This document shows, one piece after another, positions 1,058 to 62,268 of a stretch of 64,000 bases of DNA; positions within the stretch are counted from its first letter, which is position 1; the number at the start of each line of letters is the position of its first letter. The stretch comes from Escherichia phage EP335: sequence record MG748548; one strand, written 5' to 3'. Position numbers and translations under genes: made by a program. Below the pieces are notes generated by a model. That model was given only the letters and a program-made list of their open reading frames with translations. It had not been told where the DNA came from and did not search any database.

Positions 1058-1086
1058 GCCTCTCGTAGTGGGAGGCTTTTTGTTAT
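1058..1086 (+). terminator. rho-independent terminator candidate
   Basis: stem gcctctc / gggaggc with 5-nt loop followed by tttttgtta. Confidence 0.45.
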
Positions 1087-1112
1087 AGTGGTAATGTAAG
1101 AAGGAGAGAAAC

Positions 1113-1583
1113 ATGTTTGGTGAAAAAGGAGAACTCACGCCTCTACAGGTAGCTGAGGTTACAGGAAGATTACCCGGAGTAACGGAAGAACTTGAATCCA
1201 AGGGTATGAACCCAAGCAATGGGAAGTTTCAAAAAGGAAATAAGTTTGGTAGACCAAAAGGTAGTAGAGGTAAACTTACTCAGCTTATGTTAGACCGAGT
1301 AGCTTCTAGTCATTTGTCTCCTGATGAAGTGTTAATTCAAATTTACGAAGACCCTAATATTCCGCCTGATCTTAGATTCAAGGCTGCATCAAAAGTCGCA
1401 GATCTAGTTTATCCTAAGGCAGCTTCTGTTGAAATTAAGATGGAGGATGAGAATGCAATTAATGAGGAAACGTTGAATGCACAAATCAAGGACTTCTTGA
1501 CCGGAGCTTTAGGTATTGATGTTATGCCTCCAGAAGACTCTGAGGACGCTGAAAAGGAGGAGGAAGCGGACGAGAGTAAATAA
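1113..1583 (+). CDS. terminase small subunit (putative)
   Basis: RBS aaggagag upstream; basic motif KGNKFGRPKGSRGK; acidic C-terminus; position immediately upstream of large terminase. Confidence 0.5.
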   Translation: MFGEKGELTPLQVAEVTGRLPGVTEELESKGMNPSNGKFQKGNKFGRPKGSRGKLTQLMLDRVASSHLSPDEVLIQIYEDPNIPPDLRFKAASKVADLVYPKAASVEIKMEDENAINEETLNAQIKDFLTGALGIDVMPPEDSEDAEKEEEADESK

Positions 1584-1651
1584 AGGAAACGGGGAGCTGT
1601 CGAAGATTCTTTTACAGTGTACCTCAGTATAGAGGGGAGGGTTCTTTTCGC

Positions 1652-1673
1652 GAGGGATCTCTCCCTTTTTTTA
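1652..1673 (+). terminator. hairpin plus T-run (attenuator/terminator-like) between terS and terL
   Basis: agggatctctccct stem-loop followed by ttttttt; lies in 5' part of track ORF 1617..3230, probably non-coding. Confidence 0.3.
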
Positions 1674-1688
1674 ATTTTTGGAGGAAGT

Positions 1689-3230
1689 ATGTCATTAGAT
1701 AAAGAAATATATGAAGCTCTCACTGGAGATAAACTAACAGTAGAGGAAAAGAAGCGTCTGTTAGGAATATTAAAAGAGCGAGATACATGGAGAAAGTATA
1801 ATAAGATTCTAGCTTTCAAAGCATACGACTTTCAGAAGAAGTTTTATGAGGCAGGACTGAAGCATCGCTTTAGGTTCCTGTGTGCTGCTAACCGTGTTGG
1901 TAAATCTTACAGCGAGGCATACGAGTTTGCTTGTCATGTCACAGGTCGCTACCCAACTTGGTGGACTGGATATAAATTTAAAAGACCTATCCTTGCATGG
2001 GCAGTCGGGATTACAGGGGATTCCACAAGAAAGGTTTTGCAAAAGGAATTGTTTGGCACACCTATTGGAAAAGATACAGATCTTATTGGTACAGGTGTGA
2101 TTCCTCGTGATGCTATTGTCATAGACACAATAGAACGAGATGGTAACAAGCTTCAGATCGTACAAATCAAACATCAAAACGAAAGGGGAGAGTTTGACGG
2201 CCTGAGCACATTAGAATTCCGTTCAACCCAACAGGGTGAACATACATTGATGGGTGCTACAGTTGATTATATTTGGCTGGACGAAGAAGATCCTTATGAA
2301 AGTATGGCAATCTTCTCTCAGTGTGTAACACGTACACTCACAACTAAAGGTTTAGTAACGATTACAGCTACACCAGAGAACGGTTTAACAGAGCTGGTGG
2401 ATAAGTTTATGAAAGGTGAAGGTGATGCAGATACAGGTTCTCTGTATTTCCAGAATGCTTCTTGGTGGGATGCACATGTTGACTTAGGTGGTCACATCTC
2501 AGACAAGGATATAAAAGACATGACCGAAGGTATTCCTGCTTGGCAGCTAGAGATGCGCTCCAAAGGTATGCCTCTGTTGGGTTCAGGTTTGATTTATGAT
2601 GTATCTGATGACTCAGTTAAGTGTGAACCATTCGATATCCCTGATACATGGAAACGTGTGTGTGCGGTTGATATCGGTATTGATCACCCTACTGCTGCTG
2701 TTTGGTCGGCTTACGATGCTAACACTGATACTATTTACATCTATGACTGCTATAGAGAAGGTGGTTACACTCCAGCTTACCATGCTCCGGCTATTAATGG
2801 TCGAGGACAGTGGATTCCGGTGGTGTTACCTCACGATGCTGACAATCTTGAGAAAGGTAGTGGTTCTTCAGTGGCCCAATTCTATAGGAATGCAGGGGTT
2901 AACGTACAATCTGAGACCTTCTACAACAAGATTGGAATGGATGGTAAAAAGAACTTCTTTGTAGAGCCGGGAATTACAGATATTCGTGAACGTATGATGT
3001 CAGGTCGATTCAAGATCTTTAATACTGCTTCCTGTGCTAAACTCTTTGAAGAAAAAGCACGATACCACCGTAAGGTCGGTAGGATTGTTAAAGAACATGA
3101 CGACTTGATGGATGCGATGCGCTATTCTGCTTGCTCCGTAACACATAGAGGTCGTAGTAAACACGATGCTAGCTACGGAAGTTCGTCGCTTTATCAAGAA
3201 AATATTAACAGATGGAATTCGAGTTACTAA
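1689..3230 (+). CDS. terminase large subunit
   Basis: internal ATG at 1689 preceded by ggagga; Walker A-like AANRVGKS, Walker B-like IWLDEEDP, C-terminal RNase-H-like nuclease region (AVDIGIDHP). Confidence 0.8.
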   Translation: MSLDKEIYEALTGDKLTVEEKKRLLGILKERDTWRKYNKILAFKAYDFQKKFYEAGLKHRFRFLCAANRVGKSYSEAYEFACHVTGRYPTWWTGYKFKRPILAWAVGITGDSTRKVLQKELFGTPIGKDTDLIGTGVIPRDAIVIDTIERDGNKLQIVQIKHQNERGEFDGLSTLEFRSTQQGEHTLMGATVDYIWLDEEDPYESMAIFSQCVTRTLTTKGLVTITATPENGLTELVDKFMKGEGDADTGSLYFQNASWWDAHVDLGGHISDKDIKDMTEGIPAWQLEMRSKGMPLLGSGLIYDVSDDSVKCEPFDIPDTWKRVCAVDIGIDHPTAAVWSAYDANTDTIYIYDCYREGGYTPAYHAPAINGRGQWIPVVLPHDADNLEKGSGSSVAQFYRNAGVNVQSETFYNKIGMDGKKNFFVEPGITDIRERMMSGRFKIFNTASCAKLFEEKARYHRKVGRIVKEHDDLMDAMRYSACSVTHRGRSKHDASYGSSSLYQENINRWNSSY

Positions 3231-3341
3231 TTGTGCAGGGGCGCTAGATTCGTAAGTTAACTAGGCGTGTACAAATCGAAGGGGAGGCTAAGGTCTCCCT
3301 TTAGTAATTCCTTCCCAGCTATCAACCGAGGGAGAGATTAG

Positions 3342-5585: not shown

Positions 5586-5594
5586 GGACACTGA

Positions 5595-5831
5595 ATGAAT
5601 ACACAACATCAATTCAATAAAGAGCATGCCGCCAGTTTGGCGGCTCTCAATCTTACAGGCAGTCTTGACGCAGCATTAGAGGCATTGAAAGAGAAACTCA
5701 TGAAAGAGATCGTATCAACCGAGCCTCATGAGAACAAGAAACGCGAAGATTGTTATCAAAAGTATAAAATGGTGGGTAGCTTAAAAGAGGTCATAAAAGC
5801 TGCTATCAATAGTGCAGGAGATGTTTCATAA
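5595..5831 (+). CDS. hypothetical protein
   Basis: ORF track 78 aa between portal and scaffold. Confidence 0.4.
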   Translation: MNTQHQFNKEHAASLAALNLTGSLDAALEALKEKLMKEIVSTEPHENKKREDCYQKYKMVGSLKEVIKAAINSAGDVS

Positions 5832-6913: not shown

Positions 6914-6954
6914 TCGACAAATTTATTTTTTAATAGTATAGGAGCTAACATAAC

Positions 6955-8028
6955 ATGGCAAATCCAACTTTATTTGTATCTTACGACCAGAACGGTAAAA
7001 AACTTTCCTTCGCTAACTGGATTTCTGTTCTGTCCCCGCAAGACACTCCGTTTGTGTCTATGACTGGTAAAGAGTCTATTAATCAGACTATTTTCAGCTG
7101 GCAGACCGACGCACTGGCAGCAGTTGATGCATCTAACGCACACATCGAAGGCTCTCGTGCTGATGATGGCGAAATGCAGCCGACTGTAATTAAATCGAAC
7201 GTTACTCAGATCCTGCGTAAAGTTGTTCGTGTATCCGATACCGCTAACACCACCGCTAACTACGGTCGTGGTCGTGAACTGATGTATCAGCTGGAGAAGA
7301 AAGGTAAAGAGATCAAGCGTGACCTCGAAAAAATCCTTCTGTCCGGTCAGGCTCGTACCGACGTGCTGGCTGACCAGTACCTGACTAACTCTGCAACTGA
7401 TCCTGATCTGGTTGGTAAGAATGACACCAATGCAGCTCGTAAGACTGGTGCTTTCCAGTTCCTGTGTGCTCACGGTGGTCTGACTGGTGCTTCTGGTTCT
7501 CAGGTTGTTGATAAAACTAAGAACGGTCCTGCTGACCCGGATACTGGTGCAGTAACTGTTAAAGTTGCACAGAATGCTTCTAACCCGACCACTAACGTTG
7601 GTTTTGATGAAGCTGATATCTTTGATATGACTCTGCAACTGTACACTGCTGGTTCTGAAGCTGATATTATCATGATCAACCCTGCTCATGCTAAGATCTT
7701 TGCTGCTCTTCAGGAAAACTCTGTTGGTTCTCGTCAGCGTATCTTTGAGAACACCAAGCAGTTCATCTATGAAGTTAACAGCATTACTGACCCGCTGGGC
7801 CAGAGCTACAAAATCATCGTTAACCGTTGGATGCCTACTGATGCAGTATACTTCTTCCGTAGTGCTGACTGGACTCAGATGGTCCTGCGTGCTCCGAAGC
7901 GTACTGAACTGGCTAAAGATGGTTCTTACGAGAAGTGGATGATTGAAATGGAAGTTGGTCTGCGTCACCGCAACCCTTATGCTTCCGGCGTTCTGTTCAC
8001 TGCTGCGGGAAAGGTAGTGGCGGCGTAA
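6955..8028 (+). CDS. major capsid protein
   Basis: 357 aa; aggag RBS; position after scaffold; long spurious antisense ORF across it suggests strongly biased codon usage; slippery site at its 3' end. Confidence 0.7.
   Translation: MANPTLFVSYDQNGKKLSFANWISVLSPQDTPFVSMTGKESINQTIFSWQTDALAAVDASNAHIEGSRADDGEMQPTVIKSNVTQILRKVVRVSDTANTTANYGRGRELMYQLEKKGKEIKRDLEKILLSGQARTDVLADQYLTNSATDPDLVGKNDTNAARKTGAFQFLCAHGGLTGASGSQVVDKTKNGPADPDTGAVTVKVAQNASNPTTNVGFDEADIFDMTLQLYTAGSEADIIMINPAHAKIFAALQENSVGSRQRIFENTKQFIYEVNSITDPLGQSYKIIVNRWMPTDAVYFFRSADWTQMVLRAPKRTELAKDGSYEKWMIEMEVGLRHRNPYASGVLFTAAGKVVAA
8007..8013 (+). other. candidate -1 programmed ribosomal frameshift slippery heptamer G_GGA_AAG
   Basis: GGGAAAG in X_XXY_YYZ register within last codons of capsid gene (..A-G-K-V-V-A-A-stop); -1 frame is open from 7947 through 9131. 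Confidence 0.5.
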
Positions 8029-9131
8029 CAGTAGATACCGTAACTGTTAGTCCTTCGTCGGTTGCAAGCCTTCCGACGGGGGCTACTCAGCAGTTTACAG
8101 CTACAGCAGAAATGAGTGACAGCTCCACAAGCACAACCGGATTTAATTGGTCCGTTGAGGGCGGTGGGGCTATTTCTGTTTCTGGGCTATATACTGCACC
8201 GAGTGCGTCGCAAGAAACCCCAGCAACTATTACGGCTACTAAAGGTGGTAAGGCAGGTACTGCTACAGTTCAGTCTGTTTTTGAACCTGCTACTATTGAA
8301 GCCAAAGCCAACATCACTGGTAAAGTAGGTGGAAGCACTACAGCCTTTACTACAATGTTTACAGCAACTAATTCTTCGGCAGAAGATTATTCTTTTGTTG
8401 TATCTCCAACATCAGCAGGAACTGTCAGTGCCGCAGGAGTTTTAACTTTAAGTAATGATGCAACTGGCACAGTTACTGTTAAAGCAACTCATAAAACTCA
8501 GTCAGGTGTTGAAGCCACTGTAACCTTTACGGGTGTTGTTGCTAAAGCTGCTATTACTGGAAAAACAGTCACAGGTAAAGTTGGTGGTGATGTGATTCCT
8601 TTCACGGACATGTTCACTAGTAACAAACCAGCATCAGAATTCAACTACGTGTTGACTCCGACTGGTGATGTAGGTGAAATTGACACTACTACAGGTGCAC
8701 TGACTCTCTTAGATGACCCTACAGACGAACTTATTAGTGTTAAAGCTACTCATAAAACTCAAACTTCTGTAACAGCAACCACTACAATCACAGCTACTCC
8801 GAAACTTACGGGCCTTGTTGCTTCTACTGTTTCTAATACTGTGGTCGTAGGTGCTACAGATAACCCTCTTGCTACAGACTCTATCACAATCACTGACTCC
8901 GCTCAACCGGGTGTAGTTCGTTTTGATGGTGTACCTCAGGGTTCAGTAGTTGGTGCTCTATCTTATGACACAGAAGGTACTGATGTAGGTTTGATGGAAG
9001 TTGATTTAACAGGTCAGGTGTTGACAATCACTTTATCAGCTCCGATTACCAGTGAAGATACTAAAATCTCAATCAGAACTAACCCAGCCTCCACAATATT
9101 CCGTACTTATGTTGTCAAGTCTGGTGCATAA
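8013..9131 (+). CDS. Ig-like (Big_2) domain extension, probably expressed as capsid-Ig fusion by -1 frameshift; independent start at ATG 8112 not excluded
   Basis: frame open upstream of ATG 8112 and already encodes Big_2-like sequence VTVSPSSVASLPTGATQQFTATA before the ATG; no clear SD before 8112; T/S/V-rich Ig-like repeats. Confidence 0.55.
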   Translation, partial: GSGGVTVDTVTVSPSSVASLPTGATQQFTATAEMSDSSTSTTGFNWSVEGGGAISVSGLYTAPSASQETPATITATKGGKAGTATVQSVFEPATIEAKANITGKVGGSTTAFTTMFTATNSSAEDYSFVVSPTSAGTVSAAGVLTLSNDATGTVTVKATHKTQSGVEATVTFTGVVAKAAITGKTVTGKVGGDVIPFTDMFTSNKPASEFNYVLTPTGDVGEIDTTTGALTLLDDPTDELISVKATHKTQTSVTATTTITATPKLTGLVASTVSNTVVVGATDNPLATDSITITDSAQPGVVRFDGVPQGSVVGALSYDTEGTDVGLMEVDLTGQVLTITLSAPITSEDTKISIRTNPASTIFRTYVVKSGA

Positions 9132-9136
9132 ACCTA

Positions 9137-9165
9137 AGCTGCCTTCGGGCGGCTTTTCTTGTTTT
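9137..9165 (+). terminator. rho-independent terminator (UUCG tetraloop hairpin)
   Basis: agctgcc-ttcg-ggcggct followed by tttcttgtttt. Confidence 0.6.
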
Positions 9166-9185
9166 AAGACCTATACATGACCAAG

Positions 9186-9197
9186 TGTAATGTATAT
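9186..9197 (+). promoter_or_regulatory. promoter-like motif GTGTAATGTATA
   Basis: conserved TAATGTATA-type motif about 35-40 nt upstream of ATG 9230; recurs at 26307, 35797 (+) and 35724, 46340 (-). Confidence 0.35.
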
Positions 9198-9229
9198 TCT
9201 TTGTCTACATACAACTAGGAGGACAATCT

Positions 9230-9976: not shown

Positions 9977-9985
9977 GGAGAGAAT

Positions 9986-12766
9986 ATGATCGTTTATAAT
10001 AACCAAGCACCTTCGGCTGTTAACAACGTTGGTCAGTTTGGTGCAACAGAAGGCTCTATCGGAGCCTATAAACAAGCTGCTGAATACGCAGCTGACTCTA
10101 AGTATTGGGCACTTTTAGCTGAGTCTAAATTTGGTACAGTTGATGACTTGATTGCTCAGGTTGAAATTCTGTACAAACAAGGTGTTCTATTAAAAGAAGA
10201 TATTGAAGACTTAAAACAAGACTTCATTGCACAAGATGCTCGTTTGATGAATCTCATTGCTCAAACTAACGCAGCCGTAGCTGATGCAAATAATGCAGTT
10301 GCTCTGATTAATCAGAAGCTTGTAGAAGTTCAACGCCAGCTGGATATTCTGTTGGGCATGACAGTCACCGTTACAACCCTCCCCCCAGGTTCTGAGGCCA
10401 CTGGTTCATTTAACAGCCAGACCGGTGAAATCAAACTTGGTATTCCTGAAGGTGAGAAAGGTGCAGATGGTTCTGTTACTGACCTATCTACTGCCCCTAC
10501 CGGTACACCAGAGCTGGGGGATATTGGTTTCTATGTAGACAAAGATGATAACACTGTTCATAAAACCTCTCTTGAAGCTATTGCAAACCTGATCCCATCT
10601 GTTCGCTCTGTTTCTATTAACGGCGGCCCTGCGCTTGATGGTGAAGTTGCTCTTACAATCAACAAAGAGACAGTAGGTCTTGGGAACGTTTTGAACGTGG
10701 CTCAATATAGTCGCCAAGAGATTAACGATAAGTTTGATAAAACAACTAAAACATACCAATCGAAAGCTGAAGCTGATGCAGATGCTCAATTTCGACAAGT
10801 GGGAGAGAAGGTTTTGGTGTGGGATTCAACTAAATATGAATTTTATACTGTTGCAGCTAATAAGACACTCACTCCAGTTAAAACGGAAGGCCGTATCCTG
10901 ACTGTTAACTCTCGTGCTCCTGATTCAACAGGTAATATTGATATCACAATTCCAACAGGAAACCCATCTTTGTATTTAGGTGAGATGGTGATGTTCCCTT
11001 ATGACCCAGCTAAAACTGTTTCATATCCGGGAGTTCTTCCTGCGGACGGTCGTCTTGTTCCGAAAGCAAACGCAGCAGACCTTGGACCCTCTTTAGTCAG
11101 TGGTCAATTGCCTGTAGTTTCTGAAACAGAGTGGCAAGCTGGTGCTCGTCAATATTTCTCTTGGGGTAAACTTGCTGATGGTATTAATGATGCAGATTCA
11201 ACCAACTTCATCAACATCCGTCTTCCTGATTGGACAGGTGGTGAGGCTATTCGCTCCCCTGACTCTGATAAAGATACTAACTACAAAGGTCGTGTTTTGT
11301 CTCAGGTTCCTTATATTGTTACGGTTAACGGTAAAGCTCCTGATGACACTAATGGGAATGTAGTTCTAACAGCAGCTAATGTTGGGGCAGCGTCTTCAGG
11401 TGCTAACTCTGATATCACGTCTCTCAATGGACTGACTACTCCTCTCTCTGTTGCCCAAGGCGGTACAGGTGTTACTGACATAGGATCTTTGCGTAGAGCG
11501 GCGTTGGTTCAGGGGGTTCTGTGTAATGATCAGGCTGGCCCTCAATCTTATAACAGCTATAGATCTCCTAACGGGGAGTATGCTTTCAAAGTGGATAACT
11601 CGGGGCTTGTTGCTTCTATTAATGCAGGGACGGAAGAAGTTGTACCTTTTGCTATAGAATCAGGTGGTACGGGAGCAACCACATTAAATGATGCTCGAAT
11701 TAGTTTAAATTTGGAGAGATTTTTACAGCCTAGCAATGAAACCATAGTTATGGCTCCTAGTAAATCTTCATATTTAACAATTTCAGACACCTCTTGGGGG
11801 GCTTATAGTTCTTCTGACTCATCATGGAGAGCTTTAGGGATAGGACAAGGTGGTACAGGAGCGACCTCTGAGGCTGCTGCTCGTGTCAATCTGAAGGTGG
11901 ATAAGCTTGTTCAAAGTTCAACAGACACAAAACTTCTGGATGGTTCAGGAGAACACACCTTCTTTATTACAGATGCAGATTGGGGGTATTTCAATAACTC
12001 CGATTCTTCTCGAATAGCTTTGCCGGTAATAAGTGGTGGTACAGGAGGGAAGACTCCAGCCGAAGGTTCTGAAAAACTAGGAGCTATGCACTATCAGTAT
12101 GGTCAATCGACTTTTTATGGTAGCGAAGATTTGCCAACAGGTATTGGCTTCTACAGTCAAGACGTTTCCCCGTTCCCCGGGGGTAATGGAGCACCCTACT
12201 CCTATGCAGAGATTATGACCATCTCTGAAGGAGGTCGTGGTGGGAATTGGTCTCAGATTGGTTTCTCTACCATCACCAAGCAAGCTCCTCGGTATCGTCA
12301 AAGAACTAATGACCCAGCTTTGATCACTAACTGGAGAGACTTCTTGGTCAGAGACTTAAACACAACTGTGGATGTTAACGGTTTTGTTAAAATAGCATCC
12401 CCTATTGTCAAGCTTAAACCAGACGGCTCCTCTGAAGTTAATGATCAAGCACAAGGCGTAATCACAGAAAGATTAGATGTTGGTGTTTATAAGATCTCTG
12501 GAGTTCTAGGTTTTAACTCCGACCCTTCTTGGGGTGGTAATGGGGGTGGATTCTCTATTCCTCAAAACTCTAATGGACTTCCTTTACTGTGGGTGGATTA
12601 TGAAGTGGATGAGATTGGTGATATAACCCTTAAGACTTACCACAGAGTTCACAGTGGGGTTCCTTCTTTTGCTAGTAATGAAAAAGAAGGGGTTGTTGAT
12701 GGAGAACCTGTTGACATTCCAGAGGGCCGTTGGGTAGATCTTCGTGTAGAGATGCCAACCGAGTAA
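9986..12766 (+). CDS. tail fibre protein with phage tail-fibre repeats
   Basis: 926 aa; repeated GGTG(A/V)T...AR.NL motifs (QGGTGVTD, SGGTGATTLNDARISLNL, QGGTGATSEAAARVNLK, SGGTGGKT); N-terminal coiled coil. Confidence 0.6.
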   Translation: MIVYNNQAPSAVNNVGQFGATEGSIGAYKQAAEYAADSKYWALLAESKFGTVDDLIAQVEILYKQGVLLKEDIEDLKQDFIAQDARLMNLIAQTNAAVADANNAVALINQKLVEVQRQLDILLGMTVTVTTLPPGSEATGSFNSQTGEIKLGIPEGEKGADGSVTDLSTAPTGTPELGDIGFYVDKDDNTVHKTSLEAIANLIPSVRSVSINGGPALDGEVALTINKETVGLGNVLNVAQYSRQEINDKFDKTTKTYQSKAEADADAQFRQVGEKVLVWDSTKYEFYTVAANKTLTPVKTEGRILTVNSRAPDSTGNIDITIPTGNPSLYLGEMVMFPYDPAKTVSYPGVLPADGRLVPKANAADLGPSLVSGQLPVVSETEWQAGARQYFSWGKLADGINDADSTNFINIRLPDWTGGEAIRSPDSDKDTNYKGRVLSQVPYIVTVNGKAPDDTNGNVVLTAANVGAASSGANSDITSLNGLTTPLSVAQGGTGVTDIGSLRRAALVQGVLCNDQAGPQSYNSYRSPNGEYAFKVDNSGLVASINAGTEEVVPFAIESGGTGATTLNDARISLNLERFLQPSNETIVMAPSKSSYLTISDTSWGAYSSSDSSWRALGIGQGGTGATSEAAARVNLKVDKLVQSSTDTKLLDGSGEHTFFITDADWGYFNNSDSSRIALPVISGGTGGKTPAEGSEKLGAMHYQYGQSTFYGSEDLPTGIGFYSQDVSPFPGGNGAPYSYAEIMTISEGGRGGNWSQIGFSTITKQAPRYRQRTNDPALITNWRDFLVRDLNTTVDVNGFVKIASPIVKLKPDGSSEVNDQAQGVITERLDVGVYKISGVLGFNSDPSWGGNGGGFSIPQNSNGLPLLWVDYEVDEIGDITLKTYHRVHSGVPSFASNEKEGVVDGEPVDIPEGRWVDLRVEMPTE

Positions 12767-12806
12767 ATAATATATGCTCCCTTCGGGGAGCTTTAAGGAG
12801 ATTTTA

Positions 12807-14996
12807 ATGTCTAGAGAATTAATGCCCAAATCTGGCATAATGATGCCTCATGTTGTTATTAACCGAGATGCTGCGGTGGTGGGTGTCTCAACTGTTGATG
12901 GTGTTGCTGGTGCGGTTAATCTGACTGATAAATATTTACAGAAAACAGATGCAGCTTCTACTTATTTAACTAGAGCCGAAGGTGCTACTAAAACTTTTGT
13001 AACAGATGCAATTGGACCTATCATGTCTGGTGCACTGTTTAAAGATGACCCTGTTGTTGCAAATGATGTAGCTTTCCGTTCAGGTGGAGCTAATGGTGTA
13101 GAATCTGTGGATATGATTAAAGTCACTCCAGAGAATACTATCAAACTTGGTAGTTATGCATCTTCTGTTCAGGGAGTAGAGATTCACTCAGCTGGTCGTC
13201 TTCAGGTTGTTGATCAGAATGACAGTGGTGTAGAAACTAAATACCCTGTTTATTCTAAACGGTATCGTCCTGAGATTGAAGATTTACCTTTTGCTGCAAT
13301 TGGGTCTTATGTTAAGGATTCTAAAGGTCGTACTATTGGTGTTACTCGTACTGGTATCAACTCTGATATCAAACAGCTTACACAGAAAGTCACATTTACT
13401 CAGCCTGTAACTGTAGCAGATGGTGTTGGGGACTACGATGCTGTAACAATGAGGCAGCTGCGTAATAGTGGTGGTGGCTCTGGTGGTCCTACCATGAGTG
13501 GTATTTCTAACTTTGGTATTGGTGATTTTCACCTACGTGACAGTCGTGCTTTCATCCCCGCTTTTGAGGTAGTCTCTGACGGGCAGCTTTTGAATCGCGC
13601 TGACTACCCTGATTTATGGGCTTATGCTCAACTCTTAACTCCAATCAGTGACGCTGCTTGGTTGGCGGATGCACAGCAGAGAGGTAAATACTCTACTGGT
13701 GATGGTACAACCACTTTCAGGGTTCCGGATAGAAACGGCGTACAAGCAGGATCTCTTAAAGAACTGTTTGCCCGTGGTGACGGTGGTAATTCTTCTAATA
13801 ACGGTATGATGTATGATGCAGCTCTTCCTAATATCGTGGGCTATACCGCACATACTCTGCTAACAGCGTCTAGCTCTCAAGGACAGGTGGCAACTGATGG
13901 AGCTTTCACTTCAACCACATCAACCCAAGGTGTATGGCCTGTTAGTGGGGGGGGTGGTCTTTATACTAACATTCGTTTTGATGCTAATCAATCTGATCCT
14001 ACCTATGGTAGATATGGAATTACATCAAACGTAATACCTCGTAACTTTATAGGTGTTTGGACTATTCGTGCGCATGGTGGTTTTACTGCTGCTAATACTT
14101 CTTGGTCTGTTATTGATAGTGACTCGACAGAGCCTGCATCCGGAACAGTTGTTAGGGGCGGTAGTGTCAAATCTGAATACAAGATTGGTACAAGCCCAAA
14201 ATATCAAGCATATCTTCAGGCATATGGGAAAATTGGTGGGTTAGCAATTGACCGAGGTGCAGTTCTATCAAACGGGGTACAGGAGTGGTTCTTTAATCAA
14301 GATGGGACTTTGTATTTCCCAGACGCAGAGACGCAAATTGGTACATTAAGGTCTGATGGCGCGTTACATATTAGCGCATACGTCAGGCCAAAGGATGTCG
14401 TTGTAAATCCATTAAACTCTGTTGGGGTTGCAGCTTCAGAAAGAAACGCCGTCAGAATGATCAACTACGCAAATGTACCAGAAGGGGGTTATATTAACTC
14501 AGTTGGTGGCGACTGGTATGATGGGAATTGGATGCTCGGCGGAGTCAGAAGTGGCACAACAGCATTGGACCGTGCGCAACTTAACATTTTGAATGGCATT
14601 GGCAGCAGCGCCTCGTATATATTTGGCTCTGATGGTATAGCAAGATGTCAAGAATGGAGAAGTACATCTGATGAACGGATTAAAAGCAATATTGAGCGTA
14701 TCAGTGATCCACTCTCCAAGATGAAAAACATCAAGGGGGTTACGTGGGTTCTGGAAACCAACGGCTCGGTAGGGTACGGATTCATCGCACAGGACGTAGA
14801 GAAGGATTTTCCTGAAGCTGTATCAGAAATAAAGGCTTCACCAGTCACTCTGCGAGACGGGTCTGTGTTGGACAATGTAAAGTCAGTTAACACCTCGGGA
14901 GTTGCTGCTGCGTTGCACCATGAAGCTATTCTTGAACTTATGAAGCAGGTTGAAGATCTTAAGAAAGAGGTGTCAGAGCTTAAGTCTAGTAAGTAA
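12807..14996 (+). CDS. tail fibre/tailspike with C-terminal intramolecular chaperone (peptidase S74-like) domain
   Basis: internal ATG 12807 with aaggag RBS; C-terminus SDERIKSNIE...GYGFIAQDVEK plus terminal coiled coil matches autoproteolytic chaperone domains of endosialidase/L-shaped fibres. Confidence 0.7.
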   Translation: MSRELMPKSGIMMPHVVINRDAAVVGVSTVDGVAGAVNLTDKYLQKTDAASTYLTRAEGATKTFVTDAIGPIMSGALFKDDPVVANDVAFRSGGANGVESVDMIKVTPENTIKLGSYASSVQGVEIHSAGRLQVVDQNDSGVETKYPVYSKRYRPEIEDLPFAAIGSYVKDSKGRTIGVTRTGINSDIKQLTQKVTFTQPVTVADGVGDYDAVTMRQLRNSGGGSGGPTMSGISNFGIGDFHLRDSRAFIPAFEVVSDGQLLNRADYPDLWAYAQLLTPISDAAWLADAQQRGKYSTGDGTTTFRVPDRNGVQAGSLKELFARGDGGNSSNNGMMYDAALPNIVGYTAHTLLTASSSQGQVATDGAFTSTTSTQGVWPVSGGGGLYTNIRFDANQSDPTYGRYGITSNVIPRNFIGVWTIRAHGGFTAANTSWSVIDSDSTEPASGTVVRGGSVKSEYKIGTSPKYQAYLQAYGKIGGLAIDRGAVLSNGVQEWFFNQDGTLYFPDAETQIGTLRSDGALHISAYVRPKDVVVNPLNSVGVAASERNAVRMINYANVPEGGYINSVGGDWYDGNWMLGGVRSGTTALDRAQLNILNGIGSSASYIFGSDGIARCQEWRSTSDERIKSNIERISDPLSKMKNIKGVTWVLETNGSVGYGFIAQDVEKDFPEAVSEIKASPVTLRDGSVLDNVKSVNTSGVAAALHHEAILELMKQVEDLKKEVSELKSSK

Positions 14997-15090
14997 TCTA
15001 GTAGCCCCTTCGGGGGCTTTAGTAGTAAGTATGTTCAAGAAGTAATGAAACTACTATATCACAAAAGGAATACACATAGGAGATACGAAG

Positions 15091-19682: not shown

Positions 19683-19711
19683 AAGGGGCTTCGGCCCCTT
19701 TTCTTGTTTTT
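19683..19711 (+). terminator. rho-independent terminator (UUCG tetraloop hairpin)
   Basis: aaggggc-ttcg-gcccctt followed by ttcttgttttt. Confidence 0.55.
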
Positions 19712-26302: not shown

Positions 26303-26318
26303 GTCCTGCCTTCTATAA
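26303..26318 (+). promoter_or_regulatory. promoter-like motif CTATAATGTATATAGG
   Basis: TATAAT hexamer inside TAATGTATATA motif about 45 nt upstream of ATG 26361. Confidence 0.35.
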
Positions 26319-26360
26319 TGTATATAGGGGGTAGGACATTTTTATTTATAAGGAGACGTT

Positions 26361-29300: not shown

Positions 29301-30782
29301 GTTGGCATGTTCAATAAAGCTAACAAGAACTCTCAGTATGAAGCAGCAGCTAAACATCTACAGGCTCGTGAAGAACGTCTTACCTCTTTACGTAACAGAG
29401 CAGAAGCTCGTGCTCAAGCGAAAGCTACAGCAGAAGCTGAACGTCAGTCACTCGAAGCGATTGCTGGTCAGAAGACTGAGATAGAGAAGATGTTTGATGA
29501 GTTACCTAAACCTGTCCGCGAGGCTCAGGAAAGTCGTACTCTGAAACAGCTTGCAGCTCACCATGATAAGAACTCCCCTGTTCCTCCAGAACGTTTCCGT
29601 AGTATTATCGAACGTATCCATAACGCAGAGTCAGACTACCTTGATCGTAAGCGTCGTCTCACTGATGCAGAGGAAGATGCTCGTGAAGCTAAGTGGAACA
29701 AGATGTATGAACAAGCAGAGGAGATGAACCGTAAGTTCGATATAGATGCTCGTGTATCCCGTGATAAGAGCCTCAAAGAAGCTCAGGAGCGACAGAATGA
29801 TCTCATGGCAGTACAACGCCAACGTGATGACATTCATAGCCGTCTGGTGCGTTCTATCGAAGATAAGGGCATCCCTAAAGCTGATGCTGAAGCATTTGCT
29901 GGTTCTTATATGGATAACCGTTATGCTCTTCTTGAAAAACCTATGACCCCTACCGAACACCAGAATGCTCGTGCACGTATTGAGTCCGATGTAGAGAAGT
30001 TTGCTAAGAAGTATGAAAGCTTGTCTCCTATTGAGAAAGACGTGGTTAAGATTACTGGTGATGTGGAAGGTAAACTGGATGGGTTGGATGCTGAGACTGT
30101 GAAGGCAGTTGAGGAAGCTAGGAAGGTTGACTCTGATATTAAGAAACTTCAGGACGAAGAGTTGGAAATGGAGAAAATCCGTTCAGCTTTACCTGATGAT
30201 GAAAAGTCTCAGGCAAATTCCGACATTCTGGAAAGCATCAAAAAGCAAGAAGATGAGTTTGCAGGGAAGGTTGAGAAGGCATTCTTGGAAGGCAAGGACT
30301 TGAAGGAACTGGCTAGTGTTGCAGAGGTTCTGGATAGGGTTCATGGTGCTGACAAGGCTGGGAACAACCGTAGATTTGTTCGTGCTCTACAGACTGCTGC
30401 TGACAACAAGAAGAAGTATGGGGATAATCCGGTAGCTTGGTTTAGTGCTGATGATTACTCTGCTATTGCTAAACTTGGTGCTGCATCAGCGGGCGGTAAC
30501 AAATCGAGAGCGTTGGAGAAGATCTTTGGTTCTACAGCAGATCAAGCTAAGGCTAAGCTTTTGGGGAGAGATGATGTAGCGAAGATGAGACGTGTGATTG
30601 AAGCGAATCCTGAAGTCAAGATTCCTTCTTACAAGACTACTACTCGTCAAGAGTATTTACAGTTCTTGGAGAAGTATAATGATGAGGGAGTGTTGAAAGT
30701 CAAACGTGGTTCTCTGTCTGACAAATTAGAAAGGAATAAGCGTCAAGCTAAACTCCGTGTTAGAGTTCGCTCGAAAGAGTAA
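26361..30782 (+). CDS. large virion protein (putative internal/DNA-ejection protein), 1473 aa
   Basis: aaggag RBS; long A/E/K/R-rich coiled-coil content; last gene of structural block. Confidence 0.5.
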   Translation: MANIKSWEEASKSPKYMNATPEQQAQLREQYKAAGGTIPEDKPVQPQQEERGLVGEFAQGVSNAIESGGANIAASTARGLGGLVEMGENVLGSQTSYGKRIQDNAKQVLEKRMAGIEDGFGKTAGQYAGVAADIGLTVANPALAAGVIAGREAGRAYADQTPEEGEDKSVLDAALVGGANFAAQKILPGFTGTAESTLGRIGQSAASNAVAGAKGGALVGAAEAQNKYGDDTTLANVLEGAIDEGVAGAAYGGAIGGVHGAISRPSPQVFDKTPENVKTDISAEDEAIRSAKNADELREAYSQADTANTASALNLLDQNDFRITDAVAMDSPAAQRILNTDQTRAEKAASSLTERSNIPGLNPLVSPSKVKGKAFADNEHNQKQAVAMKDAMADYTKDNTKALNDVLDNLDRELNDLRVRGDFTGSAIDIKNQTRNDRDFIDAYKNFYTEANRFKARDGEDFNNFVEKATELQKLADNVSPEMKQAIGGLKKLKGMPEGFNPIQDAFTLNNTAKLMSNQDRGWTTLTDDGFREASSPSFVMNTLGAAKYALNRFSSERARSQRARQQDSNSEAIRSLARGDLEVARARRAAAKAREEMEAEPVVDDVQFKTQADDQNQAGSEPSSPATVTEDFSPSPAPLTARDLVAQRRAIRQAEQRRAEEEAQAAQNAPVEPEAPAETLPTRNPLEERRVQEAEMEQQRAAEEAAKAPETPVEESTAKAEPLPARAPKAPKEAAPEVKPATGVERLAAMSTAARQATKNRAERFARSLYTAGAKAKATAENFLAYKGDPKELMRRIRQEDQANNAARHEEMARNQLTSQQGIAAAKSNRVRSAFSDWVKERGLPSEIASKALRAEERGLDGNVSSLDSLKRRAERMYQKERDDEFDRMYREALEENKAFDKNDAPKLKDQKAEFQSEIDSLLESEPLRPAQKDAMRKMMSDFVDGKFKAAEKAGREEALEVGQMKDLWDGFINTYNREVGMFNKANKNSQYEAAAKHLQAREERLTSLRNRAEARAQAKATAEAERQSLEAIAGQKTEIEKMFDELPKPVREAQESRTLKQLAAHHDKNSPVPPERFRSIIERIHNAESDYLDRKRRLTDAEEDAREAKWNKMYEQAEEMNRKFDIDARVSRDKSLKEAQERQNDLMAVQRQRDDIHSRLVRSIEDKGIPKADAEAFAGSYMDNRYALLEKPMTPTEHQNARARIESDVEKFAKKYESLSPIEKDVVKITGDVEGKLDGLDAETVKAVEEARKVDSDIKKLQDEELEMEKIRSALPDDEKSQANSDILESIKKQEDEFAGKVEKAFLEGKDLKELASVAEVLDRVHGADKAGNNRRFVRALQTAADNKKKYGDNPVAWFSADDYSAIAKLGAASAGGNKSRALEKIFGSTADQAKAKLLGRDDVAKMRRVIEANPEVKIPSYKTTTRQEYLQFLEKYNDEGVLKVKRGSLSDKLERNKRQAKLRVRVRSKE

Positions 30783-30790
30783 ACAAGAAA

Positions 30791-30825
30791 AGCCCCAACC
30801 GAAAGGAAGGGGCTTTATTTTTATC
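30791..30825. terminator. bidirectional rho-independent terminator at convergence of + and - transcription units
   Basis: agcccc...ggggct stem flanked by T-runs on both strands (tttatttttat on +, tttcttgttt on -). Confidence 0.6.
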
Positions 30826-30885
30826 TAAATTTTAGAAACCATCAAATTCGTCATACATCCCAATTTTCTTCATTCATACAACCTC

Positions 30886-34868: not shown

Positions 34869-34880
34869 ATTATCTCCAAC

Positions 34881-34903
34881 GAAAAAAGCCACCCGAAGGT
34901 GGC
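34881..34903 (-). terminator. rho-independent terminator (UUCG tetraloop) on minus strand
   Basis: minus-strand gccacc-ttcg-ggtggc followed by ttttttc, immediately downstream of gene ending 34927. Confidence 0.45.
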
Positions 34904-34926
34904 TAAACTATTACAAGGAGAGATAC

Positions 34927-37985: not shown

Positions 37986-37997
37986 ATCTAATCCTTA

Positions 37998-38026
37998 GAC
38001 AAGAAAAGCCGCCCGAAGGCAGCTTT
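37998..38026 (-). terminator. rho-independent terminator (UUCG tetraloop); 27-nt copy of terminator at 9137
   Basis: minus-strand aagctgccttcgggcggcttttcttgt identical to plus-strand 9136-9162. Confidence 0.5.
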
Positions 38027-38031
38027 TTAGT

Positions 38032-41642: not shown

Positions 41643-41711
41643 AATTTCTTACCTAAGAAGTTTAATTTGGTTTATATAAAAGAAAAGGCCACCCAAACGG
41701 GTAGCCTCTGA

Positions 41712-45360: not shown

Positions 45361-45412
45361 TTCCTTATAAATAAGTTCGCCCTACCTCGGATTAGGAGAC
45401 AGGGCGGAGGTT

Positions 45413-51823: not shown

Positions 51824-51824
51824 T

Positions 51825-53753: not shown

Positions 53754-53755
53754 TT

Positions 53756-54194: not shown

Positions 54195-54204
54195 AATACA
54201 CCTC

Positions 54205-56223: not shown

Positions 56224-56297
56224 TTTCTAATCCACCTGAAGGGTAAACCCTTTCATCTAATTAACCTTTAGTTGTGCCCCTTTCGAGGCACCCATTG

Positions 56298-58009: not shown

Positions 58010-58018
58010 GATAACCCC

Positions 58019-58906: not shown

Positions 58907-59747
58907 TACGTTCTAAGAAACCATTTACACTGATGTTAGAAATCTTTTCATCAAGAGATGAACGTTTCCAACCAGTGCTCATAGACCAAACTCTCAAAAA
59001 GGTACTCATTGAAGAGTACATCTCTGCGTTTTGGTTTCGACGACGAGCAATACGACGAAGGGCTGCACGGTCATGGTTTCGGATATACCCTGATGTGTTA
59101 TCACCTTCTCCAACTTTGTTTTGCAACCAAACATCGGTTGAAAACTCATCTGTATTGCAAATGATCGGAAGAAATGCAAATGCTGGTAAGTCGTGCGGTA
59201 AGTAGATAGATGTTGATTCATCAGTGGAATCATTAACTCTATCAAAGTTAAGCTCCCCAAAGAAATCCTTACTTACCCCAGCAAGAGCTAGAGCTAATCC
59301 AACACGACGACGGAATAGCCATTCTTCTCTATCATCAACTCCCTCTGAAAGAAAATCCATAGATTCATACTCGCAATCGAGATAACTACGGAAAGTCATT
59401 AGTCCTGTAAAAACTTTATCTGCTGCGTGTTCACGAAGATCAACCTCTACACTATTAGCAGAAGTGATTGTGAACATATCTTTGTACATAGAACAGGAGT
59501 TTAGTACATCAGCAGTATCCAACAAATGAGACTCAATCTCATCCATGTTGCAGTGAGGCCAGTAGTTAATCTTACCCATGTGTGCTGTGAAGTTATCTAA
59601 GCTGGTTCGATTACTCAGGCCATTAATATCACGAGTGCTGAAGTTGTGCATAGAGTTGTGGATACCGAAACAGACTCGGCTCGTAAAACTCTGCTCACCC
59701 ACCATATCACTAACTTCTACAGGAGCTAATGTTGTGGAAATTGCCAT
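58818..59747 (-). CDS. hypothetical protein in amidoligase cluster
   Basis: ORF track 309 aa. Confidence 0.45.
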   Translation of the reverse strand: MAISTTLAPVEVSDMVGEQSFTSRVCFGIHNSMHNFSTRDINGLSNRTSLDNFTAHMGKINYWPHCNMDEIESHLLDTADVLNSCSMYKDMFTITSANSVEVDLREHAADKVFTGLMTFRSYLDCEYESMDFLSEGVDDREEWLFRRRVGLALALAGVSKDFFGELNFDRVNDSTDESTSIYLPHDLPAFAFLPIICNTDEFSTDVWLQNKVGEGDNTSGYIRNHDRAALRRIARRRNQNAEMYSSMSTFLRVWSMSTGWKRSSLDEKISNISVNGFLERIESRCDSSTESNKETITSLFKELVEYYND

Positions 59748-59759
59748 TGTCTTTAACCT

Positions 59760-60953
59760 TTAATTTCCTAAGAAAAGTTTCGTGAGAATTGAATCCCACT
59801 CCGTACTAGGCAGTACATCAAAACTGCTATTATTTGACAGATTCGACTGTTGAAAGTGGCGAATCATTGTGTAAGTATTAACACGGTCATTGCCAAATCG
59901 AGTATACAACAACTCATTTCGAGTCTTGTCTGATAGGGAAATAGCTTTGGCAAAAGCTACAATCAGCATAGGCTCTTTGAGGGCACGATCTTGAAGGGCT
60001 TCCGGTTGAAGAATAGGTAAGAACATTGAGTTGTTTACATACAGCTCATGCTCTTCGTGTCCGGGAACGTCATACCAAACACTCGAATAGTCTTCATCAC
60101 GGAAATGTCCTTCACCAGCCATATATGACGGTTGACGCCACGCAGTCTGGCGAGGTTCTGCCATATTAGCTCCGATGCCCACTGTGTACAGTGTTACAGG
60201 GAACAGGCAGTTATCGTATTCATTACCAGTAAAGGCAACTCGTACTTCGCCAAACAGATTCTCTTTTGCGTTAATCAATCGAGAATAGGCAAGAGCTTGT
60301 AACGGAGACCAATCGTCCATAAAGAGCTTATCAAGGAAAGTCCACACATTTGCTTGCTCATCTTCTTGATAAAACAGACGATTAACCATAAGATAGAACA
60401 GGCAACGATCAGCAGGCACTGGTTCAGATACATCTTCTGTTACCACACCCATAAAACCTTTTTCATGCCAAACAAGACATGAAGGACGATCTTTATCCAT
60501 GAAAGCTTCAAGTGCTTCCATAACTGACTTGACAGTTACATCAGGTCGTTCACGATATTCAGCCCAAAGCTCAACTGCGTTCTTAGGCTTTTCATCCCCT
60601 ACATCAGCGTGATAGAAAGCATATTGGAAGGAGATGATGTTGTTGCTCCCATCCTTTCCACGCATAGGGATATGGGTTCCAGAGTTCCAGATAATACGAA
60701 TATCTTCCATTGACATTAAACTGCTTAGGAGTTCATCGCTGCCAGAGCTTTGCATCAAGCTATAGCTGCTATCCCAAACATGGACATACTGCGTCCAGCC
60801 TTCATTGGCTTCGTAGGTAATGGGGTCGTAATAATCACTATCTTCGTCACAATCATCACCACCGTGGTAGTTGCTGTGCTGAAGAAAGCCATAGCAAGGA
60901 GGCCAGACTGTTACTACATTGTCCTGCTTATCCTGCAATGTTACTGGAAACAT
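59760..60953 (-). CDS. hypothetical protein in amidoligase cluster
   Basis: ORF track 397 aa. Confidence 0.45.
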   Translation of the reverse strand: MFPVTLQDKQDNVVTVWPPCYGFLQHSNYHGGDDCDEDSDYYDPITYEANEGWTQYVHVWDSSYSLMQSSGSDELLSSLMSMEDIRIIWNSGTHIPMRGKDGSNNIISFQYAFYHADVGDEKPKNAVELWAEYRERPDVTVKSVMEALEAFMDKDRPSCLVWHEKGFMGVVTEDVSEPVPADRCLFYLMVNRLFYQEDEQANVWTFLDKLFMDDWSPLQALAYSRLINAKENLFGEVRVAFTGNEYDNCLFPVTLYTVGIGANMAEPRQTAWRQPSYMAGEGHFRDEDYSSVWYDVPGHEEHELYVNNSMFLPILQPEALQDRALKEPMLIVAFAKAISLSDKTRNELLYTRFGNDRVNTYTMIRHFQQSNLSNNSSFDVLPSTEWDSILTKLFLGN

Positions 60954-60964
60954 TTTGAAACCTC

Positions 60965-61327
60965 TTATTGTTGTTTGATCAACTCAACGGACTTACGGAT
61001 GTAAAGAATATCACGGAAGTTACGGTAGTTGTTCATGAATTGATGCTTCTGGAACTCCGCTTCAAGCAGAGATTCTTTGGCACTTTCATAACTCTTACGG
61101 GCAAGATACACAACCCGCTCTGGTAATACGTTTGCACGACGGATGATATACTTGTGAGCTTTCATATTGCTCTGCTCACGAGATATCTTACTTTTCGCTA
61201 CCGTAATGCCATTTGCAAGCCAAACAAGCTCTTGCTCAAGCTCTTCGTTGGACATTCCACCGAGGTTTGATGCAACCTTGTTCAGAGTTTCAATGTTAAC
61301 GTTGCCCTTGATGGGACGTGTATTCAT
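60965..61327 (-). CDS. hypothetical protein
   Basis: ORF track 120 aa; aggag RBS. Confidence 0.4.
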   Translation of the reverse strand: MNTRPIKGNVNIETLNKVASNLGGMSNEELEQELVWLANGITVAKSKISREQSNMKAHKYIIRRANVLPERVVYLARKSYESAKESLLEAEFQKHQFMNNYRNFRDILYIRKSVELIKQQ

Positions 61328-61330
61328 ACC

Positions 61331-61487
61331 TACTCCTGTTGTTTACACTCACCAATAACCCACTGATAAGAAGTGGATTGACCTGAAAAGAAACACTGAA
61401 TAAATCCAGACGTTCTCTGCGTTACCAGTGCTAGTGCACATATCACTACCGCTGCTGCTAGCAGTTTCATATCTAATTTAGACATAT
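61331..61487 (-). CDS. unannotated small secreted protein, 51 aa
   Basis: MSKLDMKLLAAAVVICALALVTQRTSG... signal-peptide-like N-terminus; gagaggaaa RBS. Confidence 0.35.
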
Positions 61488-61504
61488 TTCCTCTCTTTGA
61501 ATTT

Positions 61505-61529
61505 AAAAAAGGACTCTCCGAAAAGAGCC
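61505..61529 (-). terminator. rho-independent terminator candidate (UUCG loop)
   Basis: minus-strand ggctct-ttcg-gagagtc followed by tttttt. Confidence 0.4.
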
Positions 61530-61718
61530 AAGCTTTAAATACAAAAAGATATTACCCAATATCTGTGGATAACCTGCTCTTAAAATATCTATCCGACGGA
61601 TGTTCGAGGATTGTTCCTCTCCCTAGCATCGGCCCCATACGGGAAATATATTAAGATTAGGTTAGTTGAGTCAGAATGACTCACATAGCCCTCCGAAGGG
61701 AAGGCTATAAATGTCACT

Positions 61719-61961
61719 CTATTTATCCCCACCAAAGGCGAGGTAGGCATCTCTGATTTCAGTAACCTGTGAATCAGGTTTGAATGCAGACAAATGTCCT
61801 GTGTTCAGGTTAACTGCGTTGGCAGGGATGATGCAACCCTCTACTTTAGTATCAGGGATTTTCATGTAGTAACTTGAAAAGTGCTCTGCTGAGAAAACTT
61901 CTCCAACAGTGATATCACTAATCTTCGCTAGAACATCCTTAGCTGGTTGCCCTATTTTCAT
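61719..61961 (-). CDS. small protein, paralog family B
   Basis: 80 aa; ISDITVGEVF...YYMKI...AVNLNTG motif shared with neighbours. Confidence 0.45.
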   Translation of the reverse strand: MKIGQPAKDVLAKISDITVGEVFSAEHFSSYYMKIPDTKVEGCIIPANAVNLNTGHLSAFKPDSQVTEIRDAYLAFGGDK

Positions 61962-62194
61962 TACTCACCTTTCTTAGCACGGTCTTTGGCAGTTTTACCA
62001 GTGCGGATACGATGGGAAACGTTAACCAGAGTGCCACCTTCAATAATGGTAACGCTCTTGTTCTTGGCAATGTCAAACACAGACTTCTCTGTGCCACCCA
62101 AGCGAATCTGCTTAGGCTCGCTGAAGGTTTGAGTGGACTTGGATTGGATGTTGAACGGCTGACGGATTGCATCGATTGCGCTTACTTTACTCAT
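61961..62194 (-). CDS. small protein (weak family B resemblance)
   Basis: internal ATG 62194 with aggag RBS. Confidence 0.4.
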   Translation of the reverse strand: MSKVSAIDAIRQPFNIQSKSTQTFSEPKQIRLGGTEKSVFDIAKNKSVTIIEGGTLVNVSHRIRTGKTAKDRAKKGE

Positions 62195-62228
62195 AGGGGA
62201 ATAGCTCCTAAAAATCATGACTGCGCAG

Positions 62229-62240
62229 AGGGAATTCCCT
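62229..62240. promoter_or_regulatory. perfect 12-bp palindrome AGGGAATTCCCT (operator-like)
   Basis: between minus-strand terminator hairpin and RBS of gene starting 62194. Confidence 0.3.
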
Positions 62241-62244
62241 ACGC

Positions 62245-62268
62245 AAAAACGACGCTAAAAGAAGCGTC
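62245..62268 (-). terminator. rho-independent terminator candidate
   Basis: minus-strand gacgct-tctttt-agcgtc followed by gttttt. Confidence 0.45.

Follow-up and report, generated by a model that had tools for sequence, protein, structure and literature searches.

UUCG-capped intergenic hairpins of Escherichia phage EP335 as probable terminators and intercistronic elements, with a candidate non-coding RNA element

Escherichia phage EP335 (sequence record MG748548) carries a family of G+C-rich hairpins with UUCG loops between its genes, which raises the question of whether these hairpins end transcripts, protect them or serve as exchangeable DNA cassettes. We analysed one strand of a 64,000-nucleotide stretch of this genome (hereafter the window), with positions counted from its first letter. 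A first-pass annotation of the same letters had counted "at least eight" such hairpins; it listed only seven, all of which exist within a few bases and fold as hairpins, including the one at 61529. The best explanation overall, which we hold with good confidence, combines intrinsic terminators for the host polymerase at 9136, 19683, 34904 and 38027, intercistronic hairpins at 12776 and 15003, a hairpin at 61529 that ends a separate element, and an old related pair of sites behind a 27-nt identity.

A search of both strands for C(UUCG)G hairpins whose stem has 6 bp or more, four or more of them G-C pairs, identified six in the window: four on the plus strand (9136, 12776, 15003, 19683) and two on the minus strand (34904, 38027). 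The number expected by chance is far smaller (mean 0.03, maximum 1, in 200 dinucleotide-preserving shuffles), and of the 33 strong tetraloop hairpins in the window, more have TTCG than any other loop. All six are intergenic, lie 5-10 nt past a stop codon, carry UUCG on the sense strand (6/6) and close the UUCG (UNCG) loop with a C-G pair. The folding-energy calculation proposed in the first-pass annotation gave -12 to -15 kcal/mol for these six (36-44-nt segments), while hairpin 61529, which closes with a U.G pair, was weak (-7.3 kcal/mol, z = -0.5). At 61709-61684, a CUUCGG sequence takes up a CUUC loop and thus also falls outside the UUCG class.

By megablast, the window represents a phiEco32-like podophage of E. 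coli in the subfamily Gordonclarkvirinae. Its closest relatives are KBNP1711 (genus Nieuwekanaalvirus) and KarlSchell_Bas89, each with ~94% identity to the window, and Kuravirus members such as phiEco32, SU10 and 4E8 show ~80%. Late structural genes occupy the plus strand up to ~30.8 kb, and the middle and early genes beyond lie on the minus strand. The phiEco32-like group uses the host RNA polymerase for all transcription, with sigma-70 first and a phage sigma factor (gp36 in phiEco32) later. Because the phage relies on the host enzyme, its transcription units are expected to be bounded by E. coli-type intrinsic terminators. Promoters of phiEco32-like phages bear a TAATGTATA element (PMC4281155; PMC12276001).

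Four of the six hairpins have all the sequence features of such terminators:

9136-9166, plus strand: terminator T9136, AAGCUGCC-UUCG-GGCGGCUU then UUCUUGUUUU; 8-bp stem at 9136-9155.
19683-19711, plus strand: terminator T19683, AAGGGGC-UUCG-GCCCCUU then UUCUUGUUUUU; 7-bp stem at 19683-19700.
34877-34904, minus strand: terminator T34904, AGCCACC-UUCG-GGUGGCU then UUUUUCGUU; 7-bp stem at 34904-34887.
37995-38027, minus strand: terminator T38027, AAAAGCUGCC-UUCG-GGCGGCUUUU then CUUGUCUA; 10-bp stem, including A-U pairs, at 38027-38004.

The T-runs that the first-pass annotation had described after most hairpins are present at these four, with 5-6 T in the first 8 nt past the G-C core (at T38027, 4 of 8 if counted past the 10-bp stem with its A-U pairs). 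Three of the four share the tail motif UUUUCUUGU, which recurs on the minus-strand side of a bidirectional terminator at 30789-30816. T9136 lies 5 nt past the stop codon that ends an Ig-like extension of the major capsid protein; the late-promoter motif TAATGTATA (9188-9196), the same as a late promoter listed for SU10, stands 33 nt further on. T19683 is located between the gene for a large Ig-like virion protein and the next tail gene (ATG 19729), and T34904 upstream of an Rz-like spanin gene. In relatives, annotation or papers already record the homologues as terminators: that of T9136 in SU10, 4E8 and Paul, those of T19683 and T34904 in 4E8 and Paul, and that of T38027, a site present in all relatives, in 4E8. 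In SU10, the T9136 homologue is given as '8934-aactagaccctgccttcgggcggggttttttcgtttt' and is followed by the same late promoter (PMC4281155, Table S2). Over the whole window, 4E8 (OQ689734) annotates homologues of 1058, 9136, 19683, 30800 (both strands), 34904, 38027, 41709, 61529 and 62260, and Paul (MN045231) those of 1058, 9136, 19683, 30800 and 34904; compared with SU10, 4E8 and Paul, the window has its own stem variants. In the intrinsic terminators of E. coli and its phages, a G+C-rich stem-loop and a U-tract follow a gene, as in the window, and nothing essential differs. The earlier description of these sites as terminators is therefore supported.

According to this explanation, a C(UUCG)G-capped RNA hairpin would form in the exit channel of a host polymerase standing at the U-tract, the weak rU:dA hybrid would free the transcript, and a fraction of the polymerases would release. 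T9136 would close the head module (major capsid protein and its frameshift extension) ahead of a fresh late promoter. At T19683, T34904 and T38027, the next start codon follows within 18-28 nt, with no promoter motif between. Since essential genes lie downstream of these three without a recognisable promoter, we infer that they are leaky and terminate only partially. Leaky terminators could set upstream:downstream expression ratios between modules, and could leave 3' ends that the hairpin protects against exonucleases.

The remaining two hairpins of the class bracket the second tail-fibre gene:

12776-12794, plus strand: hairpin H12776, GCUCCC-UUCG-GGGAGC then UUU; 6-bp stem at 12776-12791.
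15003-15021, plus strand: hairpin H15003, AGCCCC-UUCG-GGGGCU then UUAGUAGU; 6-bp stem at 15003-15018.

Both had been described as sitting just before a ribosome-binding site. This fits H12776, which adjoins AAGGAG, the Shine-Dalgarno sequence for the second tail-fibre gene (ATG 12806), and does not fit H15003, which lies 6 nt past the stop codon of that gene and 72 nt upstream of the holin start codon. With a U-tract defined as about five or more U in 8 nt, 12776 (UUUAAGGA) and 15003 (UUAGUAGU or UUUAGUAG) fall short in the window and in every relative, and are therefore not classed as terminators; their homologues are not annotated as terminators in 4E8, SU10 or Paul. All relatives have the three-U tail, even where the stem sequence has been replaced, and this sameness indicates that the weak tail has been retained and is no product of decay. 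The first-pass suggestion that weak T-runs set these two apart from full terminators fits a tail of only TTT that all relatives conserve. H12776 and H15003 are probably intercistronic stabilisers or weak attenuators, not full stops, which may act on the tail-fibre and lysis messages by protecting them, shaping them or attenuating them weakly. As a separate observation, the 72 nt between hairpin 15003 and the holin start (15019-15090, plus strand) are conserved in all relatives and contain AGTAATGAAACTA, which shares TAATG with the phage-sigma promoter element. This segment might serve as a weak lysis-gene promoter, or form a structured leader.

Syntenic sites were compared in about 20 genomes and contigs of relatives, and every hairpin was recovered at the same site. 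The 9136 site occurs with six stem variants (AGCTGCC/GGCGGCT, CCCTGCC/GGCGGGG, GGCTGCC/GGTGGCC, GCCGCC/GGCGGC, GCCGCC/GGTGGC and AGCTGCC/GGTGGCT) and eight hairpin-plus-tail variants, all with the TTCG loop. At 12776, the change from GCTCCC/GGGAGC to GCCCTC/GAGGGC is compensated (GCCCUC-UUCG-GAGGGC in NC-B). Other loops occur there in Paul (GAAA), TH42 (CUUC) and Bas89 (CTCG), and the hairpin-UUU-Shine-Dalgarno layout is kept in all relatives, even where both stem and loop have been replaced. Compensated changes were also found at 15003 (GCCCC to CCCCGC, giving CCCCGC-UUCG-GCGGGG) and at 38027 (G-C to A-U in the group of TH42, TH43, NC-B and 4E8), where Paul has the loop mutant TTAG. At 19683, GGGGC becomes GGGAGC (GGGAGC/GCUCCC stems) and the loop is UUCG or, in Kuravirus, UUCGU. 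The 34904 loop is UUCG or UCCG, both of the UNCG type.

Hairpins without a UUCG loop provide a comparison:

1058-1084, plus strand: terminator T1058, GCCUCUC-GUAGU-GGGAGGC then UUUUUGUU.
30777-30826, both strands: bidirectional terminator T30800, at the convergence of plus-strand late genes and minus-strand genes.
41674-41709, minus strand: terminator T41709, 11-bp stem with the tail UCUUUUAU.
62244-62268, minus strand: hairpin T62260, GACGCU-UCUUUU-AGCGUC, G, then UUUUU.

T1058 and T62260 form the left and right limits of the range covered by the first-pass annotation, whose terminator list was incomplete: it had missed the bidirectional terminator at 30789-30816, the minus strand of which has the same GGCUUUUCUUGU tail. 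On the plus strand, T30800 consists of a stem with a 2x2 internal loop and an inner C-GAAA-G hairpin, followed by UUUAUUUUU; its minus-strand tail, GGGGCUUUUCUUGUUU, is a motif common to T9136, T19683 and T38027. Among the phage relatives, T30800 has compensatory stem changes and swapped inner parts; 4E8 and Paul annotate it on both strands, and SU10 on the minus strand. Homologues of T1058 (in 4E8 and Paul), T41709 (in 4E8) and the conserved T62260 (in 4E8) are likewise annotated as terminators. A late-promoter-like TAATGTA lies beyond T1058, at 1092. The segment 62221-62268 (minus strand) holds tandem hairpins, T62260 and then a 10-bp UUGCGUAGGGAAUUCCCUCUGCGCAG, both conserved in 4E8. The loops at 1058 and 41709 differ in almost every variant among the relatives (in every one at T1058; six loops among eight variants at T41709). 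Because UUCG is kept while these loops vary, the UUCG loop itself, and not the stem alone, appears to be under selection where it is present.

Several points weigh against terminators at these sites and against the strength of the structural evidence. T38027 was missed by a simple terminator scan. Terminator prediction, which the first-pass annotation had put forward as a check, was carried out here as an index after d'Aubenton-Carafa with modern energy parameters, and serves for ranking only: it was positive for 9136, 19683, 34904 and 38027, as well as for 1058, 30800 and 41709, about 0 for 15003 and below 0 for 12776. When 27 distinct variants were pooled and aligned on their loops, 95.8% of cells were paired, and 47 cells had changed on both sides compared with 11 +/- 3.5 in shuffles (0/500 reached this number) and 5-12 in slid controls, in a test that mixes non-homologous sites preselected as hairpins; the within-site compensatory changes are the cleaner evidence. 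The stems of 12776, 15003 and 34904 are mostly invariant in most relatives and are neutral on structure. Finally, sequence, fold, enrichment, strand bias, synteny and covariation are observed directly, and termination, read-through and stabilisation are deduced from them.

Could all of these hairpins, including those with U-tracts, mainly act in RNA stability or processing, with little termination anywhere? As 3' barriers to PNPase and RNase II, or as 5' protective stem-loops after RNase E cleavage, they would account for the conserved hairpin-UUU-Shine-Dalgarno layout at 12776, and they would have a precedent in the T4 gene 32 messenger RNA, which is stabilised by a 5' CUUCGG hairpin (cited in PMC8948821). 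The essential genes close behind T19683, T34904 and T38027, in addition, require high read-through. The conserved U-tracts (5-6 T in 8 past the stem core) and the shared UUUUCUUGU would, however, be superfluous for a pure stabiliser, and T9136, with its own promoter next to it, shows the classic arrangement at the end of a unit. We therefore consider this alternative clearly less likely than intrinsic termination.

A further question concerns the 27-nt sequence AAGCTGCCTTCGGGCGGCTTTTCTTGT, which the first-pass annotation had found at 9136-9162 (plus strand) and, as its reverse complement, on the minus strand, and which it had taken as a sign of modular reuse or recombination of terminator cassettes. 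The identity is real, although the reverse complement lies at 37999-38025, one base away from the position first given. The 38027 site reads AGCTGCC-TTCG-GGCGGCT + UUUUCUUGU, or AGCTACC-TTCG-GGTGGCT, in every relative from which it was recovered (with a TTAG loop in Paul), and across the subfamily the variants of the 9136 site differ from the 38027-site sequence by 0-5 nt. The perfect 27-nt match occurs only in the window. Bas89 has 26 nt, the other relatives with both sites recovered have exact matches of 8-14 nt, and the 9136-site version of NJ01 is one base off that of the window. The extra match upstream, GCATAAAC, is mostly a coincidence of Ala and stop codons. A recent duplication as the source of the 27-mer is weakened by the likeness of the two sites in all relatives, and for the same reason a fresh cassette move finds no support. 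Judged by these variants, T9136 and T38027 look like an old related pair (paralogy), or two sites that have converged in a narrow sequence space; the perfect match in the lineage of the window may owe something to local gene conversion.

The hairpins and terminator-promoter cassettes might in addition be DNA linkers for the recombinational swapping of variable modules (Ig-like capsid decoration, tail-fibre tips), with the 27-nt identity as a trace of exchange or gene conversion. Homology with relatives does restart at three of the hairpins: at 9136-9139 in 5/8 relatives; at 14991-15004 in four relatives and 14976 in two more; and at 12762-12793 in two relatives, with two more ~110 nt upstream (12666-12668). 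These breakpoints fit module borders, and are equally expected because the variable parts are C-terminal domains, after which the intergenic hairpin is the first conserved sequence whether or not exchange takes place. The PeSL cassettes of T4-type phages (PMC2839356, PMC4122927) offer a precedent. Like them, the window has a stem-loop followed by a promoter (9136 with 9188, 1058 with 1092), and the genome has more than one similar copy, placed at the borders of variable modules; unlike them, its promoters are of the phage-sigma late type and not early sigma-70, and it holds only about six copies compared with dozens of PeSLs. The perfect identity of T9136 and T38027 in the window lineage alone would suit an exchange, but the two 27-mers are inverted and 29 kb apart, so that a crossover between them would invert half the genome, and in all relatives the sequences at these two sites already resemble each other. 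A linker role thus seems unlikely, and less probable than a role in RNA stability. That the hairpins are chance palindromes or protein-binding sites at the DNA level, without a role in RNA, is suggested only by the fact that any hairpin sequence is also a DNA inverted repeat, and is negligibly probable in view of the enrichment (6 against 0.03 expected), the sense-strand placement of UUCG in 6/6, the compensatory stem changes and the G.U pairs that work only in the RNA sense (e.g., GGCTGCC/GGTGGCC).

The seventh hairpin, at 61529, differs from the intrinsic terminators and intercistronic hairpins considered so far:

61503-61529, minus strand: hairpin T61529, GGCUCUU-UUCG-GAGAGUC, C, then UUUUUU; 7-bp stem at 61529-61512.
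61503-61709, minus strand: non-coding element of ~207 nt, with a 5' hairpin (61709-61684), a branched core and T61529 as its 3' terminator.

Pairing of flanking A and U extends the hairpin, and a U-tract of the length defined above follows after a 1-nt spacer. Its inclusion among conserved UUCG hairpins does not hold, as the relatives show UUAU, UUAG or GAAA loops; the closing pair is compensated among them (U.G, C-G, G-C), and 4E8, 7-11 and SU7 annotate a terminator at the homologous site. T61529 ends a non-coding element and not a protein gene: it closes a 230-nt gap without a credible open reading frame (ORF). This gap is more conserved than the surrounding genome (34 phage records, 95-99% identical), and the element is also present in the Salmonella phages 7-11 and pSal-SNUABM-01 at ~69-77% identity. 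The sigma factors of the phiEco32-like and 7-11-like groups share only 15% identity (PMC8948821).

Using 22 distinct versions of ~207 nt, collected by blastn and pattern matches, RNAalifold predicted 52 pairs, 11 of them with compensatory changes, spread over 8/10 helices; 99.5% of cells pair. The 11 pairs changed on both sides compare with 5.4 +/- 1.6 in shuffles (0/500) and 0-2 in slid controls, with the covariation stemming mainly from two clades and hence from few independent events. A non-canonical pair, A..G to C..A, also covaries (GGG[A/C]GAG with CTC[G/A]AAC). The sequence GGTTATCCACA is invariant in the element and contains a DnaA-box 9-mer, TTATCCACA, at 61572-61564 (minus strand), which is the only perfect copy in the window and is unchanged in 22/22 versions. 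On this sequence evidence, the 9-mer may mark a DNA-level role (replication, DnaA binding) or a constraint on the RNA. Over the window, GC skew tracks the direction of transcription only and gives no sign of a replication origin.

Rfam yielded no match in the whole window at gathering thresholds, and only spurious matches to the terminator part at E <= 10; a tRNA search of the window found none. The records checked annotate only terminator features at the 3' end of the element and ORF calls that overlap its edges. In scans of metagenomes and genomes, the element turned up on twelve contigs, eleven from metagenomes and one from a metagenome-assembled genome. Each carries sequence of the phiEco32-like or 7-11-like type, and those long enough to judge measure 68-90 kb. 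IMG/VR scans for more homologues gave few contigs, and three matches to GGTTATCCACANANATTNGGT were discarded as lacking the element. Pfam found nothing on the proteins flanking the element. Between the coliphage and Salmonella-phage versions, the upstream ORFs have at best weak similarity (E = 0.2) and the downstream genes are unrelated; since the neighbouring genes differ between the two phage groups, the element is not tied to a particular one. We give an even chance to the interpretation that 61529 is the 3' end of an undescribed, self-contained and structured non-coding RNA of ~207 nt, 69-99% conserved across both groups. Its function could be that of a regulatory or anti-host RNA, or of an RNA or DNA element tied to the start of replication.

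The UUCG hairpins themselves are already known in kind, and the annotation of relatives already includes members of the family. The description of CUUCGG hairpins between phage genes goes back to 1988 (Tuerk et al., via PMC8948821); they are common there, above all in T4 (PMC8948821). The C(UUCG)G hairpin is a model system for nuclear magnetic resonance (PMC2811024), and a 2022 paper that reviews the roles of these hairpins reports a related GTTCGG-loop hairpin before the sigma-factor gene of the phiEco32-like phage 7-11 (PMC8948821). The hairpins in the window resemble this class in their C-G-closed UUCG loops, their place between phage genes and their link to termination and messenger RNA stability. 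They differ from it in that 4/6 add full U-tracts and that 61529 closes with U.G, and, among the relatives, in the alternation of UUCG and UCCG at one site, CUCG at 12776 and UUCGU in Kuravirus.

In phage T7, the strong hairpin terminator T-phi follows the capsid gene 10A/10B with its -1 frameshift extension and acts on T7 RNA polymerase, and the tail genes beyond it depend on read-through or on the promoter that follows. T9136 likewise follows a probable frameshift extension of a capsid gene; the terminators of the window differ in using the host RNA polymerase. The slippery heptamer GGGAAAG, as annotated for Paul and phiEco32, lies at 8007-8013 (plus strand), 15 nt upstream of the stop codon of the capsid gene. 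Because of this heptamer near the capsid-gene stop, the ORF of 339 amino acids at 8112-9131 (plus strand), which ends just upstream of T9136, is probably added to the major capsid protein by -1 frameshifting. This Ig-like extension (8112-9131) is a module that varies between relatives.

Three other structures were observed in the window. An inverted repeat of 15 bp at 26303-26347 (plus strand, -22.8 kcal/mol) holds the late-promoter element TAATGTATA in its loop (promoter P26 of phiEco32) and is followed by ATTTTTATTT. It is near-identical in all relatives, only 4E8 deviating (three stem bases); as RNA transcribed from upstream it is terminator-like, and as DNA it places a promoter at the tip of a cruciform-capable repeat. 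A strong hairpin at 45378-45406 (minus strand; 11 bp, 7 G-C pairs, CGCCCUGUCUCCUAAUCCGAGGUAGGGCG) has no U-tract, and ARAGORN does not identify it as a tRNA. The third, a hairpin at 3279-3302 (plus strand) behind the large terminase gene, has the weak tail UUUAGUAAUU; in Kuravirus, its homologue bears a full U-tract, and SU10 annotates it as a terminator. Judged from these tails, the site seems to have become a weaker terminator in the Nieuwekanaalvirus lineage.

Telling full terminators and intercistronic hairpins apart sharpens the transcription-unit map of a phiEco32-like phage and helps annotation. The family also illustrates, in nature, selection that preserves the UUCG loop as stem sequences drift. 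Once measured for strength, the conserved terminators are candidates for use as engineering parts, and the hairpins mark module borders, which aids the design of tail-fibre swaps in therapeutic Kuravirus-type phages. For the UUCG finding itself little is at stake, and the element found as a by-product could matter more: if the interpretation is true, two phage groups would share, in their early region, a phage RNA of a new kind or a candidate element linked to replication.

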